From assembly GCA_026706025.1 (NCBI GenBank), contig JAPOZO010000052.1, forward strand, positions 48,337-112,336: a stretch of DNA of 64,000 bases. Direction: 5' to 3'. Both the position numbers and the translations under genes were made by a program. The notes under the pieces were generated by a model. That model saw only the letters and a list, made by a program, of their open reading frames with translations. It was not told the origin of the DNA and did not search any database. How positions within the stretch are numbered: the first letter of the stretch is position 1; every line of letters starts with the position of its first letter. Origin of the DNA: Candidatus Poribacteria bacterium. GTDB lineage: Bacteria; Poribacteria; WGA-4E; WGA-3G. Of this stretch, positions 16,278 to 61,716 are shown in pieces.

Positions 16278-17735
16278 ATGGCTGACAAACCACACGTTCT
16301 GCTCATCTCAACCGATCATTGGCCCAACTCACTTTTAGGGGTCAGCGGACATCCCGCTATCCAAACACCGACGCTTGATTCGATCGCACGAGCCGGTATC
16401 CGCTTCACGCGCGGATACAGCGAATGCCCGGTTTGCGTCCCCGCACGAAAAACGTTGATGACCGGTGCCACAACAAGGACCCACAAAGACCGCGTTTTCA
16501 ACGATCAAAAGGGAATAGACGGACTTCCGACAATCGCGCAGACGTTTCGCAACGCAGGATATCAGGCTTATGCTGTTGGTAAGCTGCACGTCTATCCGCA
16601 ACGAGACCGCATCGGATTTGATGATGTACTGTTGGGTGAGGAAGGTAGATTACAATACGGCGCGATTGACGACTATGAACTCTTCCTCGGCGACAGAGGG
16701 TATGCCGGTCAGCAGTTCGCACATGGGATGTGCAACAACGATTACCTCAACAGACCTTGGCATCTCCCGGAAGATTGCCACGTTACAAACTGGAGCACGC
16801 AGCAGATGGTCCGGATGATTAAACGCCGGGATCCAACGCGACCCGGATTCTGGTACCTCTCCTATTGCCACCCGCACCCGCCTTTGGCACCGCTCCAGTG
16901 TTATATGGATATGTATCGCGATATCGACGTGGATATGCCCTATTATGGCGAATGGTCAAAGCAGAGCGAGGAACTCCCCTTACCGATAAAAGGACGGCAG
17001 AAACAGGACGAACACTTTAATGAAGACTTGGTCCGTTCGGCACGTCAAGCCTTTTACGCGCTTTGTACGCACATTGACCATCAGTTACGGGTCGTTATCG
17101 GCACACTACGGGAAGAAGGCTTGTTGAACAACACGATTCTGCTGTTCACATCCGATCACGGTGATATGCTCGGAAATCATGGGATGTGGGCAAAACGGCT
17201 CTATTATGAAGACTCTGCCAACGTCCCGATGCTCCTTGTCGGCACCGCAGGCGATGAACGCGTAGGGCATCACAGAGTTGATGACCGACTCGTCGGATGG
17301 CAAGATGTGATGCCGACGCTCCTTCACCTCGCTGGAATCGAGATTCCAGATACAGTAGATGGGATACCAATGGTCGGTGACGAAAAACGGGAGTGGTTGT
17401 ACGGCGAATGTGGCGAAGGTGGAAGTGCGACTCGAATGATTCATGACGGACGCTTCAAGCTCATCTACTACGCTACCGGCAACTACCGACAACTCTTCGA
17501 TCTGGAAGAGGATCCACGAGAGTTAAACGACCTCGCTAATTCACCAGTACACGCCGAAATCCTTGAGCGATTAACGGATATCTTGATCGGTGAACTCTAC
17601 GGTAGCGATGAAAAATGGATTGAAGATGGCAAACTTGTCGGTCTGCCTGACCGTGAATATCGTCCTTCTGCGAACCGAGCCTTATCGGGCCAACGCGGAC
17701 TTCACTGGCCCCCACAGCCATCTGTAGGGCGTTAG
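16278..17735 (+). CDS. Sulfatase (Cys-type, CxPxR)
   Basis: SECPVCVPARKTLMTG carries the CxPxR formylglycine motif. SDHGDMLGNHGMWAKR matches the sulfatase signature II. Confidence 0.85.
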   Translation: MADKPHVLLISTDHWPNSLLGVSGHPAIQTPTLDSIARAGIRFTRGYSECPVCVPARKTLMTGATTRTHKDRVFNDQKGIDGLPTIAQTFRNAGYQAYAVGKLHVYPQRDRIGFDDVLLGEEGRLQYGAIDDYELFLGDRGYAGQQFAHGMCNNDYLNRPWHLPEDCHVTNWSTQQMVRMIKRRDPTRPGFWYLSYCHPHPPLAPLQCYMDMYRDIDVDMPYYGEWSKQSEELPLPIKGRQKQDEHFNEDLVRSARQAFYALCTHIDHQLRVVIGTLREEGLLNNTILLFTSDHGDMLGNHGMWAKRLYYEDSANVPMLLVGTAGDERVGHHRVDDRLVGWQDVMPTLLHLAGIEIPDTVDGIPMVGDEKREWLYGECGEGGSATRMIHDGRFKLIYYATGNYRQLFDLEEDPRELNDLANSPVHAEILERLTDILIGELYGSDEKWIEDGKLVGLPDREYRPSANRALSGQRGLHWPPQPSVGR

Positions 17736-28016: not shown

Positions 28017-28089
28017 ATTTTAAATACTACTCATAACCTATAGCGCGAGGTCTCGCTGCCTCGCGCTACCTTTATGCAAAAAATTTCAA

Positions 28090-39481: not shown

Positions 39482-39505
39482 AGCCCTTTTCCATTTCTAC
39501 TTGTA

Positions 39506-39537
39506 GGGCAGGCCCGAGTGCCTGCCTCTTTTCTTTT
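39506..39537 (+). terminator. Rho-independent terminator
   Basis: GGCAGG-cccgagtg-CCTGCC stem followed by TCTTTTCTTTT. Confidence 0.7.
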
Positions 39538-51107: not shown

Positions 51108-51223
51108 CTTGCCATAACAACTTTTGGGTGTCGTAGGGGTAGGCGCGAGCAGCGTTCAAACCTACCCTCTACTTCCCAAAGGACCTGCTATCTGTCGGAA
51201 TGGTCTACCAGATCAATTTTTCT

Positions 51224-51251: not shown

Positions 51252-51339
51252 TAAAATACAAAAGATAATTCTTTTTAGCATACCCGTGAAACTTCATAAA
51301 ATGGTGTGCGTAATTAACATCTAAATAGTTACCCAAAAA

Positions 51340-51601
51340 GCGTTGAAGGGGAGGAGTAAGTCGCCCGGGCTTGCAAGAGATGGAGACTCATCGGCTGAAA
51401 GGTCTCCTCAAGTTACCACGACTGAAGGTCGCCCTGGAGCTGCTAATCTGAACACATATCAGTAGGATTAGTCGGTCCGATGCCCGTTATCGTATCCCAA
51501 AGAGTGCTCTTTCTCATAAGAGAAAGGGAATTGGAGTGGTACCACGGTAAGGTCAGTATTATGTCCTTCTCGTCTCCATGTTTGGAACGAGAAGGTTTTT
51601 T
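51340..51601 (+). promoter_or_regulatory. T-box riboswitch leader with intrinsic terminator, upstream of ilvB
   Basis: Stem I region with an AGAGA motif (51376-51380). T-box sequence AATTGGAGTGGTACCACGG (51529-51547) matches the consensus AATTAGGGTGGTACCGCGG at 15 of 19 positions. Terminator CCTTCTCGT...ACGAGAAGG + TTTTTT at 51565-51601, 55 nt before the ilvB ATG. Confidence 0.6.
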
Positions 51602-54157: not shown

Positions 54158-55150
54158 ATGGCAACGATTTATTACGATAGTGATGCTAATTTTGACTTAC
54201 TGAAAGAGCGTACCGTCGCTGTTGTTGGCTATGGTGCGCAAGGACGTGCACAGTCGCTAAATCTCAAAGACAGCGGTGCAAACGTGATCGTCGCATTATA
54301 CGAAGGCAGCCGTTCAAAAGCCCGTGCAGAAGCGGAAGGTCTGACTGTCAAGAACGTTGAAGAAGCCGCAGCAATGGCAGACATCGTCCAAGTTCTCATA
54401 CCTGACGAACGCCACGCCGCTGTCTATCGCGACCAGATTGCCCCTAACATGGAAGCAGGCAATATGCTCCTCGTCTCACACGGGTTTAGCGTCCACTTTG
54501 GGCAGATTGTACCTGCCAGCGACATTGATGTCGCAATGATTGCGCCTAAGGGCCCCGGTTCCCTCGTTCGTGAAGTGTTTGAAGGCGGTGGTGGTGTGCC
54601 GTGCCTTATCGCCATCCATCAAGACACCACAGGTCTCGCGCGCGATGTCGCACTCGCTTATGCAAGAGGTATCGGCGGCACACGTGCTGGGGTCATTGAA
54701 ACGACGTTCCGCGAGGAGACCGAAACCGATCTCTTCGGTGAGCAAGCCGTGTTGTGTGGCGGAACCGCTGCCCTCATCAAAGCCGCCTTTGATACACTCG
54801 TTGAAGCCGGTTATCAACCGGAAATGGCTTATTTTGAATGCCTCCACGAGTTGAAATTGATTGTTGACCTGATCTATACGGGTGGGTTGAGCAAGATGCG
54901 GAACGATGTCAGCAACACCGCCGAATACGGTGATCTAACACGCGGTCCTCAACTCATTGACGATAGTGTCCGGGACAAGATGCGCCAAATCTTGAAAGAC
55001 GTTCAAGGCGGTGTCTTTGCACGTGAATGGGTTTTGGAAAATGAGGCGAACCAACCCGTGTTAGGCGCGCTCCGCCGACAAGAGGCGGAACTTGAGATCG
55101 AAGAAGTCGGAAAAAATCTCCGTAGCATGATGAGTTGGCTTGATGAATAG
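54158..55150 (+). CDS. ilvC: Ketol-acid reductoisomerase
   Basis: [21 protein letters not shown] Rossmann motif and the KARI C-terminal knotted domain. Confidence 0.95.
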
Positions 55151-55238
55151 CCGCTCCTTTCGGTAATTGTGGTAGGTGCGGTTTTGCGGTGTACCATAGG
55201 TGTCAATTTAGTAGATTTTCAGTGGTTTTCTCTTGAAG

Positions 55239-55490
55239 TCCCGTAGGTTGGGTTGAACGGCGTTGAGAAGTGGACTGTTGACAGGTCAAACACCCCTGAA
55301 AGTCAATATCCGACCACATCTATTCGTGAACGTAGTGAAACCCAACTTTACGCTGTCAGCCCCGCGGAACCTTCAAATCAAAAGCGTTGGGTTTCACTCG
55401 GTCTCTGATGGGTGTGGTGTATCTGGAACAAGTTGTGTTTTCTATGATTTTCGGGTTTTTAGTGGCATCCGTTCAACCCAACCTACGGGA
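55239..55490. mobile_element. MITE-like 252-bp element with 22-bp perfect terminal inverted repeats and a nested 13-bp inverted repeat
   Basis: Terminal inverted repeats TCCCGTAGGTTGGGTTGAACGG (55239-55260) and CCGTTCAACCCAACCTACGGGA (55469-55490). Inner repeats AGTGAAACCCAAC (55334-55346) and GTTGGGTTTCACT (55386-55398). No transposase gene and no clear target-site duplication. Confidence 0.5.
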
Positions 55491-55520
55491 CGATACTTGG
55501 GTATTTCTGCGGATTTCTTC

Positions 55521-55553
55521 GCGTACACCGCAGAATTGCCCTACTACAAACGG
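55521..55553. repeat. GCGTACACCGCAGAATTGCCCTACTACAAAC repeat module (second copy at 63287-63317)
   Basis: 29 of 31 nt identical between the two copies. The GCGTACACCGCA submodule also occurs at 10003-10014 and as GGTAGGTGCGGTTTTGCGGTGTAC at 55171-55194. Confidence 0.7.
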
Positions 55554-55640
55554 TCAGGTTCGTAGTAGTGCGATTCATCGCACGTTCCGACATTACCGAA
55601 TTAATAAATTAATCCTCATCCAACCGCACCGCAATAGTAA

Positions 55641-56087
55641 ATGGATTCATCCGGCAACGCAAACGTCCACTCAGACCCTTTTTTAATTCGGGAGTGCCAC
55701 CTTGAAGAAGCAGAAGCACTTCTTGCATTATGGCAGGCTGCTGGAACATCTCCGAGCGTCACAGATACCACTACAGATATCCAAAGTGTGATAGAAGGTC
55801 CCGCATCGGTGTTAGTAGCAGAGGTCAATAAACGACTTGTCGGTTCCTTAATCGCCACTTTTGATGGGTGGAGAGGGAACATGTATCGCATAGCGGTTCA
55901 TCCTGACTATCGACGGCGTGGTATTGGGCGAGCATTGGTTGCGGAAGGCGAAAAACGTTTAGCAAAACTCGGTGTCAAACGCATCACAGCACTCGTGGAA
56001 GAGAAGTATCCGTGGGCTGTCGCGTTCTGGTCAAGTGTCGGGTATGAGATAGAACCTGGAATCGTGAGGTTTTTCCGCAATCCTTAG
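55641..56087 (+). CDS. GNAT-family N-acetyltransferase
   Basis: Acetyl-CoA-binding motif A: RRRGIGRALVAEGEKRLAKLGVKRI. Confidence 0.75.
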   Translation: MDSSGNANVHSDPFLIRECHLEEAEALLALWQAAGTSPSVTDTTTDIQSVIEGPASVLVAEVNKRLVGSLIATFDGWRGNMYRIAVHPDYRRRGIGRALVAEGEKRLAKLGVKRITALVEEKYPWAVAFWSSVGYEIEPGIVRFFRNP

Positions 56088-57275: not shown

Positions 57276-57620
57276 TTATGATTCTGAATCGGGCTGCAAC
57301 ACAGCAGAAAGAGTATCTGTAACCCATTGATCAAGATTCTTACCACTTGCTTCGGCCGCCATAGCGATGCCTATATGAACTTCGGGCGGAATGGACAAAG
57401 TCACGTTCCCAGAATAGGGTTTCTGCGGTGGCCTCCCTGATTCTTCGCACATTTCAAGGTAATCCTCCACTGCTTCTTCAAAAGCAGTTCGTAATTCGGC
57501 AACGGAATCGCCGTGAAACCCGACAATATCCCTAATTCCAGCGATTTCGCCAACAAGACAACTGTCCTCAGCACTATATCTAATTTCGGCTATATAGCCT
57601 TTGTATACCATTGTATTCAC
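57276..57620 (-). CDS. hicB: HicB-family antitoxin
   Basis: N-terminal HicB fold (YKGYIAEIRYSAEDSCLVGEIAGIRDIVGFHGDSVAELRTAFEEAVEDYLE) plus a C-terminal RHH-like segment. Overlaps the upstream gene by 4 nt. Confidence 0.7.
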   Translation of the reverse strand: MNTMVYKGYIAEIRYSAEDSCLVGEIAGIRDIVGFHGDSVAELRTAFEEAVEDYLEMCEESGRPPQKPYSGNVTLSIPPEVHIGIAMAAEASGKNLDQWVTDTLSAVLQPDSES

Positions 57621-57934
57621 GGTGTTATTCCTACCTCCTCAAGAAAACGTCGTGCGTTTTGCACTTGGTAAACTTTTGCCTCCTTCTGGCCATGCGGTCG
57701 ATGAAACGTAACGGCAACATTATTCAATTCAAACCGTACTCGCGATCCCCGTCCTTCAGTAAATTTGGCACCAAGGGCCACAAAAAGGGATTCAATACGT
57801 CGCCACCTCAATGTAGCCGGGACCGGCCTCCTGAAAATAGCGTTCAAAGTGTTCTGATGTCGTTTATTCATTTTTGTAAGAAATAATTTTCCATCTCCGT
57901 CCTCGATACATCCGGAGATCAGTTCTACCGGCAC
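57617..57934 (-). CDS. hicA: HicA-family mRNA-interferase toxin (with N-terminal extension)
   Basis: GAKFTEGRGSRVRF...VTFHRPHGQKEAK pattern, resembling HicA GSHxxF...HxPHxxK. Located immediately upstream of hicB. Confidence 0.5.
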   Translation of the reverse strand: MPVELISGCIEDGDGKLFLTKMNKRHQNTLNAIFRRPVPATLRWRRIESLFVALGAKFTEGRGSRVRFELNNVAVTFHRPHGQKEAKVYQVQNARRFLEEVGITP

Positions 57935-59240: not shown

Positions 59241-59458
59241 GAATGCCCAGAGCCATTCAATTCTCCATTTTCCGAGCGAATCTTCACCGCCAGGCCCGGT
59301 AGGTGCGGTTTCCGAACCGCACCGGATCTTGGAAAAAAGACGTGAAACCCCATAATTTCTTAAAATTGAATGGCTCTGCTGAATGCCTAATATATTATAC
59401 CATTTTAGTTGAGTTTGTGGTAGAATGAAATCAGAATTTTGATAAGAGGCAACTAACA

Positions 59459-61274: not shown

Positions 61275-61716
61275 GAATCATCCCTCCTTAGATTCTGATG
61301 CCTTTTAGACAAGTTAATGTAGCACAAACTTCCCAGTTTGTGTGCTATGGGCGCAAACTGGAAAGTTTTGCGGCGTATTCGCCCAGATGCGACGTGCATC
61401 GCGCTACAACATGCTTATCAAACTCACGTTAAAGTACGTACTTAAAATCCAATACCTTCGCCCAAATAGGGCAAATCTCCTAAAGTTATGGAAAACCAAA
61501 CTATAACTTAGAAAAGATACTAACCCACGTATAAAATTGTATCACTGTTCACCGTTTAAATCCACGCAAAAAATTTAAAGCCACGCAACGCATTGCGCGA
61601 CTACAAACGGCACTACTAACAGTGTTGGGTTTCGCTTACGCTCTACCCAACCTACGATAAATTGTATGTGTTGAATTGTTAGGTTTTGCTACACGCTAAT
61701 CAACCTACAGAATCGG

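Follow-up and report, generated by a model that had tools for sequence, protein, structure and literature searches.

The 254-nt palindromic element lying between ilvC and a GNAT acetyltransferase gene in a 64-kb stretch of DNA from Candidatus Poribacteria (the whole of the stretch analysed, hereafter the window) is a doublet of GTAG-tagged repetitive extragenic palindromes (REPs) of the REPIN type (REP doublets forming hairpins) and belongs to a REP-RAYT system of these bacteria, RAYT standing for REP-associated tyrosine transposase. It is an element of a known kind in an enlarged form, built of two units of ~102 nt set back to back with their GTAG tags facing outward, and is probably mobilized in trans by a RAYT acting through single-stranded DNA (ssDNA). 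Its unusual traits are the ~74-nt loop of fixed length within each unit, the doublet size of ~240-250 nt and the occurrence of the same REP, together with related RAYTs, in both Cyanobacteria and Poribacteria. In the literature searched, no paper was found that ties Poribacteria to RAYTs, REPINs or miniature inverted-repeat transposable elements (MITEs).

The element is bounded by a perfect inverted repeat (55238-55260, GTCCCGTAGGTTGGGTTGAACGG, and 55469-55491; 100% complementary), the 23-nt arms of which are one base longer than the 22 nt given in an earlier note made from the letters of the window, and it encloses, as that note had also recorded, a perfect 13-nt inverted repeat (AGTGAAACCCAAC at 55334-55346 and GTTGGGTTTCACT at 55386-55398). 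Among the four inverted repeats detected in the window with a seed of at least 11 and arms within 600 nt of each other, the 23-nt pair is the longest and the only perfect one. Compared with shuffled sequences, the 254-nt element gave z = -5.9 (plus strand) and -5.3 (minus strand) when folded as RNA and z = -6.9 and -4.9 for the two strands when folded as ssDNA, the predicted RNA folding energy being -108 kcal/mol for the plus strand and -95.5 kcal/mol for the minus strand. Domain matches of both neighbours bear out the placement of the element: it begins 88 nt downstream of ilvC (54158-55150; KARI_N/KARI_C), which is part of an ilvB-ilvN-ilvC cluster, and is followed by the co-directional GNAT acetyltransferase gene (55641-56087). 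The two overlapping open reading frames (ORFs) that cross it (55263-55565 and 55387-55686) had been taken for spurious, and rightly so, as neither has a Pfam match and the reading frame is not kept open across the family. On the same ground, coding was rejected as a general property of the units: on one strand the three frames are open in 55, 61 and 30 of 144 units, and on the opposite strand hardly any is.

In a scan of one genome per species, a 19-nt portion of the arm was found in at least 120 stretches. Among the matches listed, nearly all carriers are metagenome-assembled genomes (MAGs) of Candidatus Poribacteria, the others being a small number of cyanobacteria and a single MAG with the label Pseudomonadota. 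A collection of viral contigs does not contain the arm, for which reason a viral origin was rejected. Full-length relatives, 67-83% identical to the window element, are present at other loci in many Poribacteria genomes, two of them in one genome, and all of these loci, including those of the closest copies (80-83% identity), are devoid of ilvC and of the GNAT gene. In total, 38 inverted arm pairs spanning 222-264 nt were recovered, and in each of these 38 aligned copies four conserved blocks (A, GTAGGTTGGGTTGAACGG; B, GAGTGAAACCCAAC; C, GTTGGGTTTCRCT; D, CCGYTCAACCCAACCTAC) are split by spacers that vary in sequence and are nearly constant in length. The proposal that the element is one of many dispersed, related palindromic units, non-autonomous and probably mobile, is thereby upheld, and the outcome that would have spoken for a locus-specific structure, namely a single copy with conserved synteny, is the opposite of what was observed, given the at least 120 arm sites, the full-length relatives at non-orthologous loci and the two syntenic relatives without the element described below.

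The basic module of the family is the single unit, with a length of 101.4 +/- 1.7 nt (range 96-111, n = 144) and the formula GTAG + GTTGGGTT + GA + AC ... GT + GA + AACCCAAC, in which the dots represent an interior of ~70 nt that is fixed in length and free in sequence. The 144 units, found by a search in which the 14-nt GTAG-plus-arm pattern could differ at no more than one position, comprise 36 dimers, 55 monomers, in which block A is followed by block B at ~90 nt and the unit stands alone, and a remainder that is partial or clustered; beside the monomers and dimers there are 13 short forms with A and B only ~20-30 nt apart. GTAG precedes the stem in all 144 units, and the stem itself consists of 8 bp, a tandem GA opposite GA (142 of the 144) and a further 2 bp. 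Pair A15/B-11 is A-T in 109 units, G-C in 21 and a G-T wobble in one, with non-pairs in 13, and the pair that follows it shows swaps between G-C and T-A; a compensated stem variant, GTCGGGTT/AACCCGAC, is found in locus L128 (2872-2972 and 3566-3666; loci retrieved for comparison carry L numbers), where it flanks a RAYT gene. In a second type of dimer, blocks C and D have changed jointly and A and B are unchanged, which indicates that the individual unit pairs with itself and that pairing is not confined to the outer arms.

All 36 dimers carry their GTAG tags outward, on either side of a central spacer of 19-44 nt. Their halves combine as sequence clusters 3 and 7 (18 dimers) or 5 and 8 (13 dimers); a further four combinations are represented by a single dimer each. 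The halves are co-inherited in fixed pairs and show parallel divergence. Monomers of clusters 5 and 8 are also numerous, some being near-identical on different contigs of one MAG. One subgroup of near-identical monomers (L031 ~712, L053 ~2176, L059 ~6796, L077 ~7039 and L034 ~6394) has an ATG preceded by a ribosome-binding site immediately beyond block B, from which an ORF of 45-57 aa (MVVGRTITVGFHS...PFNPTY...), confined to this subgroup, reads into the unit. The flanks of these monomers are conserved too, the repeat extending past the unit, and the ORF may be either spurious or a small gene.

Since the tag-plus-hairpin layout suggested REPs, the retrieved loci (~1 Mb) were searched with Escherichia coli RayT by tblastn, which returned one strong match (46% identity over 158 aa, E = 9e-41) in Poribacteria PCPOR1. 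The corresponding ORF (L029, 3157-3696) contains the HUH and Tyr motifs, has TnpA-REP (4ER8) as its closest solved structure and scores 199 bits against the NCBIfam equivalog for REP-associated tyrosine transposases, NF047646 (199-208 bits for the Poribacteria proteins, with a cut-off of 80). Homologues from Poribacteria show 71-94% identity and those from filamentous cyanobacteria 64-70%. In L029, 74 nt separate the gene from a complete dimer, beyond which a monomer and a partial unit follow in the upstream direction, and at four further Poribacteria RAYT loci long units or dimers are located within 11-30 nt of the gene. Hence, RAYT is flanked by units within 11-74 nt in all five Poribacteria loci examined (L029, L127, L128, L129 and L130/L131), and on both sides in four of them; it is also the sole enzyme gene bracketed by unit ends in ~1 Mb of loci. 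Two RAYT loci carry arrays of ~8-10 copies. These arrays, situated directly upstream of the gene (L129 1168-2962; L130 664-2934), repeat either units with a period of ~185 nt or whole dimers with a period of ~300 nt (8 copies), and gene callers have placed on them many small ORFs of 74-92 aa.

The units are extragenic, 136 of the 144 lying outside ORFs of at least 150 aa, which account for 75% of the locus bases. Outside the seeded matches their density is ~14 per Mb, and the window has 31 per Mb, figures that express per-genome copy number as a rough density and not as an exact count. Two contigs, one of 4.8 Mb (L002) and one that is short (L003), encode an IlvC identical to that of the window and have the same gene order. 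At these syntenic loci, the ilvC-GNAT spacer measures 149 nt in L002 and 89 nt in L003, against 490 nt in the window, and neither relative contains the element. Their spacers hold instead short hairpins, GTAG GTTCGGTT ... AACCGAAC (L002 11046-11082; L003 1321-1347). These stems, like the GTCGGGTT/AACCCGAC variant of L128, are compensated variants that may reflect co-diverged REP-RAYT pairs.

The unit interior is constrained in length (standard deviation ~1.7 nt), yet some 90% of the interiors compared in pairs resemble each other no more than shuffles do; no interior motif is positionally conserved, and the composition on the GTAG strand is consistent, with 35% A and 17% G. In most dimers the two interiors are not complementary and pair with each other no better than with the interiors of other copies. 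The copy in the window is an exception, ranking second of 36 in interior pairing, and it is because its two interiors pair, unlike those of most dimers, that it appears so strikingly palindromic. Helical phasing or curvature was considered and rejected, as an AA/TT signal at 10.5-11 nt (z 12-14) fell to the level of control intergenic DNA after related copies had been removed. A modest periodicity of A at ~9-9.5 nt is present in the non-redundant interiors (z = 6.7, against 3.0 for control intergenic DNA).

A mechanism for the dispersal of the family can be drawn from REP-RAYT systems in the literature and from the E. coli enzyme. When the DNA becomes single-stranded, for example in the lagging-strand template, the stems would fold, and a single-copy RAYT of the HUH/Y1 type, encoded elsewhere and itself flanked by units, would recognize the GTAG tag together with the stem. 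By cutting and rejoining the strand, the enzyme would then copy or move the doublet to other extragenic sites without producing a target-site duplication. In the ilvC-GNAT spacer, one such copy would have landed or been retained, relatives holding other short REPs at that site. The element is most likely to be an ordinary passenger at this locus, and any effect on the expression of ilvC or of the GNAT gene is conjectural.

A number of observations weigh against the assignment of the element to REPINs and against this mechanism. The units, at 96-111 nt, fall outside the 20-40 bp expected of palindromic units and exceed the REP size range 2.5-5 times; only 12 positions at each end are paired, the rest of the unit not being palindromic, although short forms of the same sequence, 31-32 nt in length, are known from the window (61624-61655) and from cyanobacteria. 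In ssDNA, a hairpin in which 8 bp close a loop of ~86 nt is weak. The interior folds with a mean z of -0.2 relative to interior-shuffled controls, and a compact interior structure was ruled out. A long hairpin was likewise ruled out as a general property of the family, most copies pairing only at the conserved blocks. Compensatory changes are present in the stem, yet most of them may descend from few events. The comparison of L002 and L003 with the window does not reveal a clean insertion, and its junctions are not definable, because the spacer has diverged and contains other REP-like pieces. The 64-kb window contains no RAYT gene, the presence of one in the genome of the window being assumed from related genomes. 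Finally, mobilization by RAYT has been demonstrated only in part for any REPIN, and for the Poribacteria family it is presumed by analogy, the indirect evidence being the presence/absence difference at a syntenic locus and the dispersal to non-orthologous loci.

The earlier note had described the element as MITE-like, with terminal inverted repeats (TIRs); as a classical MITE, it would be a deletion derivative of an insertion sequence (IS), moved by a DDE transposase that makes target-site duplications. The perfect 23-nt ends, a length of ~240-250 nt in ~38 copies and a dispersed, extragenic distribution speak for such an origin, which is nevertheless highly improbable. What looked like TIRs are the outer arms of a pair of GTAG-tagged units, each ~102 nt long and inverted relative to the other, that are also found alone, half-elements with one such 'TIR' being common and having their own inverted partner block 86 nt away, and the ends are identical to the canonical cyanobacterial GTAG REP. 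No target-site duplication was found at the junctions of 38 dimers and 55 monomers, no parent IS encoding a DDE transposase and having the same ends was seen in ~1 Mb of loci, and no arm pair encloses a transposase gene apart from the RAYT flanked by units, an HUH/Y1 enzyme and not a DDE one. The centre of the element, AAACCCAAC - 39 nt - GTTGGGTTT (55338-55394), has the order and size of an integron attC site, with the core GTTGGGT fitting GTTRRRY and ACCCAAC fitting RYYYAAC, and it precedes a GNAT gene, GNAT being a common type of cassette. The probability that this resemblance is meaningful is negligible, as the architecture of the unit refutes it: in the basic unit the order of the blocks is reversed (GTTRRRY first and RYYYAAC last), and this unit occurs alone 55 times. 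Moreover, neither cassette arrays nor an integrase are found at the window spacer, the GNAT gene is syntenic in relatives without the element, and the associated enzyme is a RAYT.

The possibility that the repeats are kept for a function in RNA, as part of a small-RNA gene or of a stabilizer or terminator in the 3' untranslated region of ilvC, finds some grounds in the very stable fold of the window copy, which is better on the plus strand and so implies G.U pairs, in its location behind ilvC in a co-directional pair and in the effects on mRNA stability and termination that are reported for REPs elsewhere in bacteria (PMC3733652). The small-RNA alternative had also been raised in the earlier note, but it is not supported, and an RNA function is very unlikely to explain the repeats. 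There is no Rfam match at the gathering score or at E = 1 (the best permissive hit reaches 14.9 bits, against 45), and no promoter-like or terminator-like site in 54900-55900. Across 37 copies neither strand folds preferentially (20 versus 17, p = 0.86; mean difference in minimum free energy 0.0), although this test is weak, since a palindromic element makes the orientation between subfamilies ambiguous. In addition, the unit interiors are unstructured, monomers in co-directional spacers are oriented 16 times in the sense and 15 times in the antisense direction, spacers with units are not enriched for convergent gene pairs, and close relatives with the same genes lack the element. A primarily architectural role of the element as DNA domesticated by the host, which is compatible with an origin as a REPIN, would have the ~102-bp length set by protein wrapping or by helical phasing of the duplex and not by transposition. 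Bacterial interspersed mosaic elements (BIMEs) of E. coli do bind IHF, gyrase or Pol I, and the constrained length of interiors that are dissimilar in sequence, their consistent composition and the modest ~9-nt periodicity of A are in keeping with such a role. It is nonetheless unlikely, as the AA/TT periodicity is ordinary for intergenic DNA once redundancy is removed, the interior has no positionally conserved motif, no candidate binding protein was identified, and a strand-specific composition fits a constraint on the single strand better than one on the duplex. The linkers of E. coli BIMEs, for their part, are conserved sequence motifs, in contrast to the sequence-free long interior of the Poribacteria units.

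The REPIN assignment is best appreciated against the systems already described. GTAG tags, a preference for GTAG-outward dimers, RAYT genes flanked by repeats ('REPtrons') and dimers nested in longer palindromes are all described in PMC3733652, where REPs measure 20-40 bp and have loops of 2-4 nt in most families and of at most ~27 nt. The REP doublet is the replicated unit, and its intervening sequence is constrained in length more than in sequence (PMC3116915); RAYTs are single-copy genes with flanking 16-mers that are abundant genome-wide (PMC5581495). As in REPINs, the Poribacteria doublet consists of two inverted REPs and a spacer with a predicted long hairpin, is extragenic, present in tens to hundreds of copies and without coding capacity, may behave as the inherited unit in place of the singlet, flanks a single RAYT gene and conserves the length but not the sequence of what lies between. 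It differs from them in the size of the REP (~102 nt versus ~20-25) and of the doublet (~240-250 nt versus roughly 90-130), in that most of the unit is an unpaired, A-rich loop and the long interiors mostly do not pair mutually, and in that monomers are as common as dimer halves, some monomer lineages seeming to have multiplied.

There is also a likeness to the GTAG REP superfamily, which includes the cyanobacterial GTAG-12, -15 and -16 repeats and the members of which, according to Di Nocera et al. 2013 (PMC3733652), share an unpaired 5' GTAG beside a stem of 6-13 bp, favour 'HH' dimers and flank their RAYT; in Anabaena, some GTAG-15 dimers are nested inside longer palindromes. The Poribacteria family departs from that superfamily in its ~74-nt loop of fixed length, compared with the maximum of about 27 nt given there, and Poribacteria are not among the phyla discussed in the sections of that paper that were consulted. 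E. coli TnpA-REP (RayT, b0228; 4ER8; PMC3479197, PMC8266576) is 46% identical to the Poribacteria RAYT and likewise has the HUH motif and the catalytic Tyr; the substrate logic of GTAG plus an imperfect hairpin with an internal mismatch is also the same, as are the clusters of alternating orientation, but the E. coli REP has another stem sequence and is ~35 nt long. The bacterial MITEs Correia/NEMIS, ERIC and Nezha are similarly small, non-coding, dispersed and extragenic, with inverted ends and hairpin potential; they differ in having target-site duplications and in deriving from, or being moved by, IS elements of the DDE type, whereas the Poribacteria family is free of duplications and has a Y1/HUH RAYT as its partner.

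The cyanobacterial counterpart of the unit was found next to RAYT itself. In Halotia branconii, a RAYT within the 64-70% identity band is flanked by GTAG GTTGGGTT GA AC aaa GT GA AACCCAAC, which has the same tag, stem, tandem GA and closing pairs as the Poribacteria unit, but a loop of 3 nt in place of ~74 nt. The 31-nt short form, GTAGGTTGGGTTGAACggaGTGAAACCCAAC, occurs in Nostoc, Calothrix, Cyanosarcina and Halotia; the other non-Poribacteria matches contain the same short REP as inverted doublets (REPINs) of ~70-100 nt, and among the matches the long-loop units are restricted to Poribacteria. Some cyanobacterial doublets (L016 905-983, L089 148-213 and L082 4354-4449) join two REP variants, GTTGAGGAACGAAACC with GTTGAACGGAGTGAAACC, and these heterotypic doublets mirror the fixed pairing of unit types in the Poribacteria dimers.

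It is conceivable, if somewhat doubtful, that the 'long-loop REPs' of Poribacteria constitute a distinct REP/REPIN class, in which the canonical 31-nt GTAG REP shared with cyanobacteria has received an apical insert of ~74 nt (constant to within ~2 nt, free in sequence, A-rich and G-poor on the tagged strand), and that, at the same time, the REP-RAYT system crossed between cyanobacteria and sponge-symbiont Poribacteria. The rules that make a REP mobilizable are known mainly from proteobacteria. In the Poribacteria family, the module presumed to be recognized (GTAG tag, 8-bp stem, tandem G.A and 2-bp clamp) would tolerate a loop 25-fold larger, with the loop length fixed in spite of the lack of sequence conservation; the long-loop class, if real, would point to an undescribed length-measuring constraint, either in RAYT-dependent processing or in a host function. 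REPINs and RAYTs are regarded as long-lived, vertically inherited 'replicators' of bacterial genomes. The same module and closely related RAYTs are found in two phyla that are unrelated but have sponge and marine habitats in common, and if transfer did take place, the near-identical REP and the 64-70% identical RAYTs would contradict a view of vertical inheritance only. The family may thus be viewed as a natural experiment on how RAYT reads its substrate and as a case on which the horizontal transfer of REP-RAYT systems can be tested. In genome annotation, it offers an explanation for spurious small ORFs, short-read contig breaks and variable spacers in Poribacteria genomes.

The features of the element and the related hairpins of the window are compiled in the table. 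The dimer is nested in further, imperfect inverted repeats (55159-55194/55523-55600; 22 nt at 77% and 13 nt at 92% complementarity), and the entire 490-nt ilvC-GNAT spacer is a cluster of REP-like sequences.

Features of the element between ilvC and the GNAT gene and of other GTAG-tagged hairpins in the window
Feature	Position	Strand	Remarks
Whole element: REPIN-like dimer, two long-loop GTAG REP units in inverted orientation with tags outward (an 'HH' dimer as defined in PMC3733652), with the 5-nt arm extension GTCCC / GGGAC included	55238-55491	.	Inverted-repeat search, family alignment
Unit 1, 104 nt: GTAG GTTGGGTT GA AC GG - interior - GTAGTGA AACCCAAC	55243-55346	+	Sequence cluster 7
Unit 2, 101 nt: same architecture as unit 1, read on the minus strand	55386-55486	-	Sequence cluster 3
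Block A: GTAG tag and 5' arm of the unit-1 stem (GTAGGTTGGGTTGAACGG)	55243-55260	+	Present in all copies; same sequence as the 5' half of the short REP of cyanobacteria
Block B: 3' arm of the unit-1 stem (TAGTGAAACCCAAC)	55333-55346	+	Covaries with block A
Central spacer between units 1 and 2, 39 nt	55347-55385	.	19-44 nt in the family
Block C: reverse complement of the B block (GTTGGGTTTCACTC)	55386-55399	+	
Block D: reverse complement of the A block (CCGTTCAACCCAACCTAC)	55469-55486	+	
Left copy of the associated outer palindrome motif (CCATAGGTGTCAATTTAG)	55194-55211	+	Right copy missing at the window locus; motif also in flanks in L021, L042, L090, L115, L012, L049 and L086
Degenerate GTAG-tagged REP-like piece (GTAGGTGCGGTTTTGCGGTGTAC; GTAG GTGCGGTT)	55172-55194	+	Different stem type; belongs to the outer inverted repeats
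Short 32-nt REP of the same family: GTAG GTTGGGTA GA GC gtaa GC GA AACCCAAC	61624-61655	-	
Perfect short REP: GTAG GTGCGGTT tccg AACCGCAC	59299-59322		Same stem type as the degenerate piece at 55172-55194
Hairpin GTAG GGCAGGC ccgagt GCCTGCC	39503-39526		
GTAG-tagged hairpins with different stems, including the two preceding ones	2248-2312, 17262-17314, 39503-39526, 51133-51167, 59299-59322, 61319-61342, 28044-28069	- for 28044-28069	

The outer palindrome motif belongs to a second repeat family, CCATAGGTGTCAATTT(T)AG ... CTAAATTGACACCTATGG, which surrounds about a quarter of the dimers and is represented in the window by its left half only. Two independent short-read contigs, L004 and L005, have the same sequence as the window beyond ilvC, and each of them stops exactly within this motif, which is what the boundary of a multi-copy repeat would be expected to cause.

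Perfect 7-bp hairpins in the window carry GTAG more often than any other 4-mer tag (16 times, the mean being 4.9), and the variety of stems beside it suggests that several REP families coexist in this genome. The earlier note had traced a motif of the element to three hairpins elsewhere in the window, grouped with it as 'family E'. The recurrence holds for one of them: the 12-mer CCGTAGGTTGGG, with three matches in the window against 0.13 expected, recurs with one mismatch at 61646-61657, and it is not found at the other two. The grouping similarly stands at the level of the superfamily, as all of these hairpins are GTAG-tagged, and not at that of the family: the hairpin at 61624-61655 alone shares the stem of the element and is the only related site elsewhere in the window, whereas those at 2248-2312 and 51133-51167 have the tag in common with it and different stems.

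Beyond the spacer, a HicB/HicA antitoxin-toxin pair is encoded at 57276-57934 on the minus strand, downstream of an FG-GAP gene, in the window-type locus L001. In its relative L002, a methyltransferase/restriction-like gene takes the place of this pair, which shows that the neighbourhood is variable between close relatives. Upstream of ilvB, a T-box leader (Rfam RF00230, 113.7 bits) was detected at 51334-51580 on the plus strand, an instance in a Poribacteria genome of T-box control of an amino-acid biosynthesis operon.

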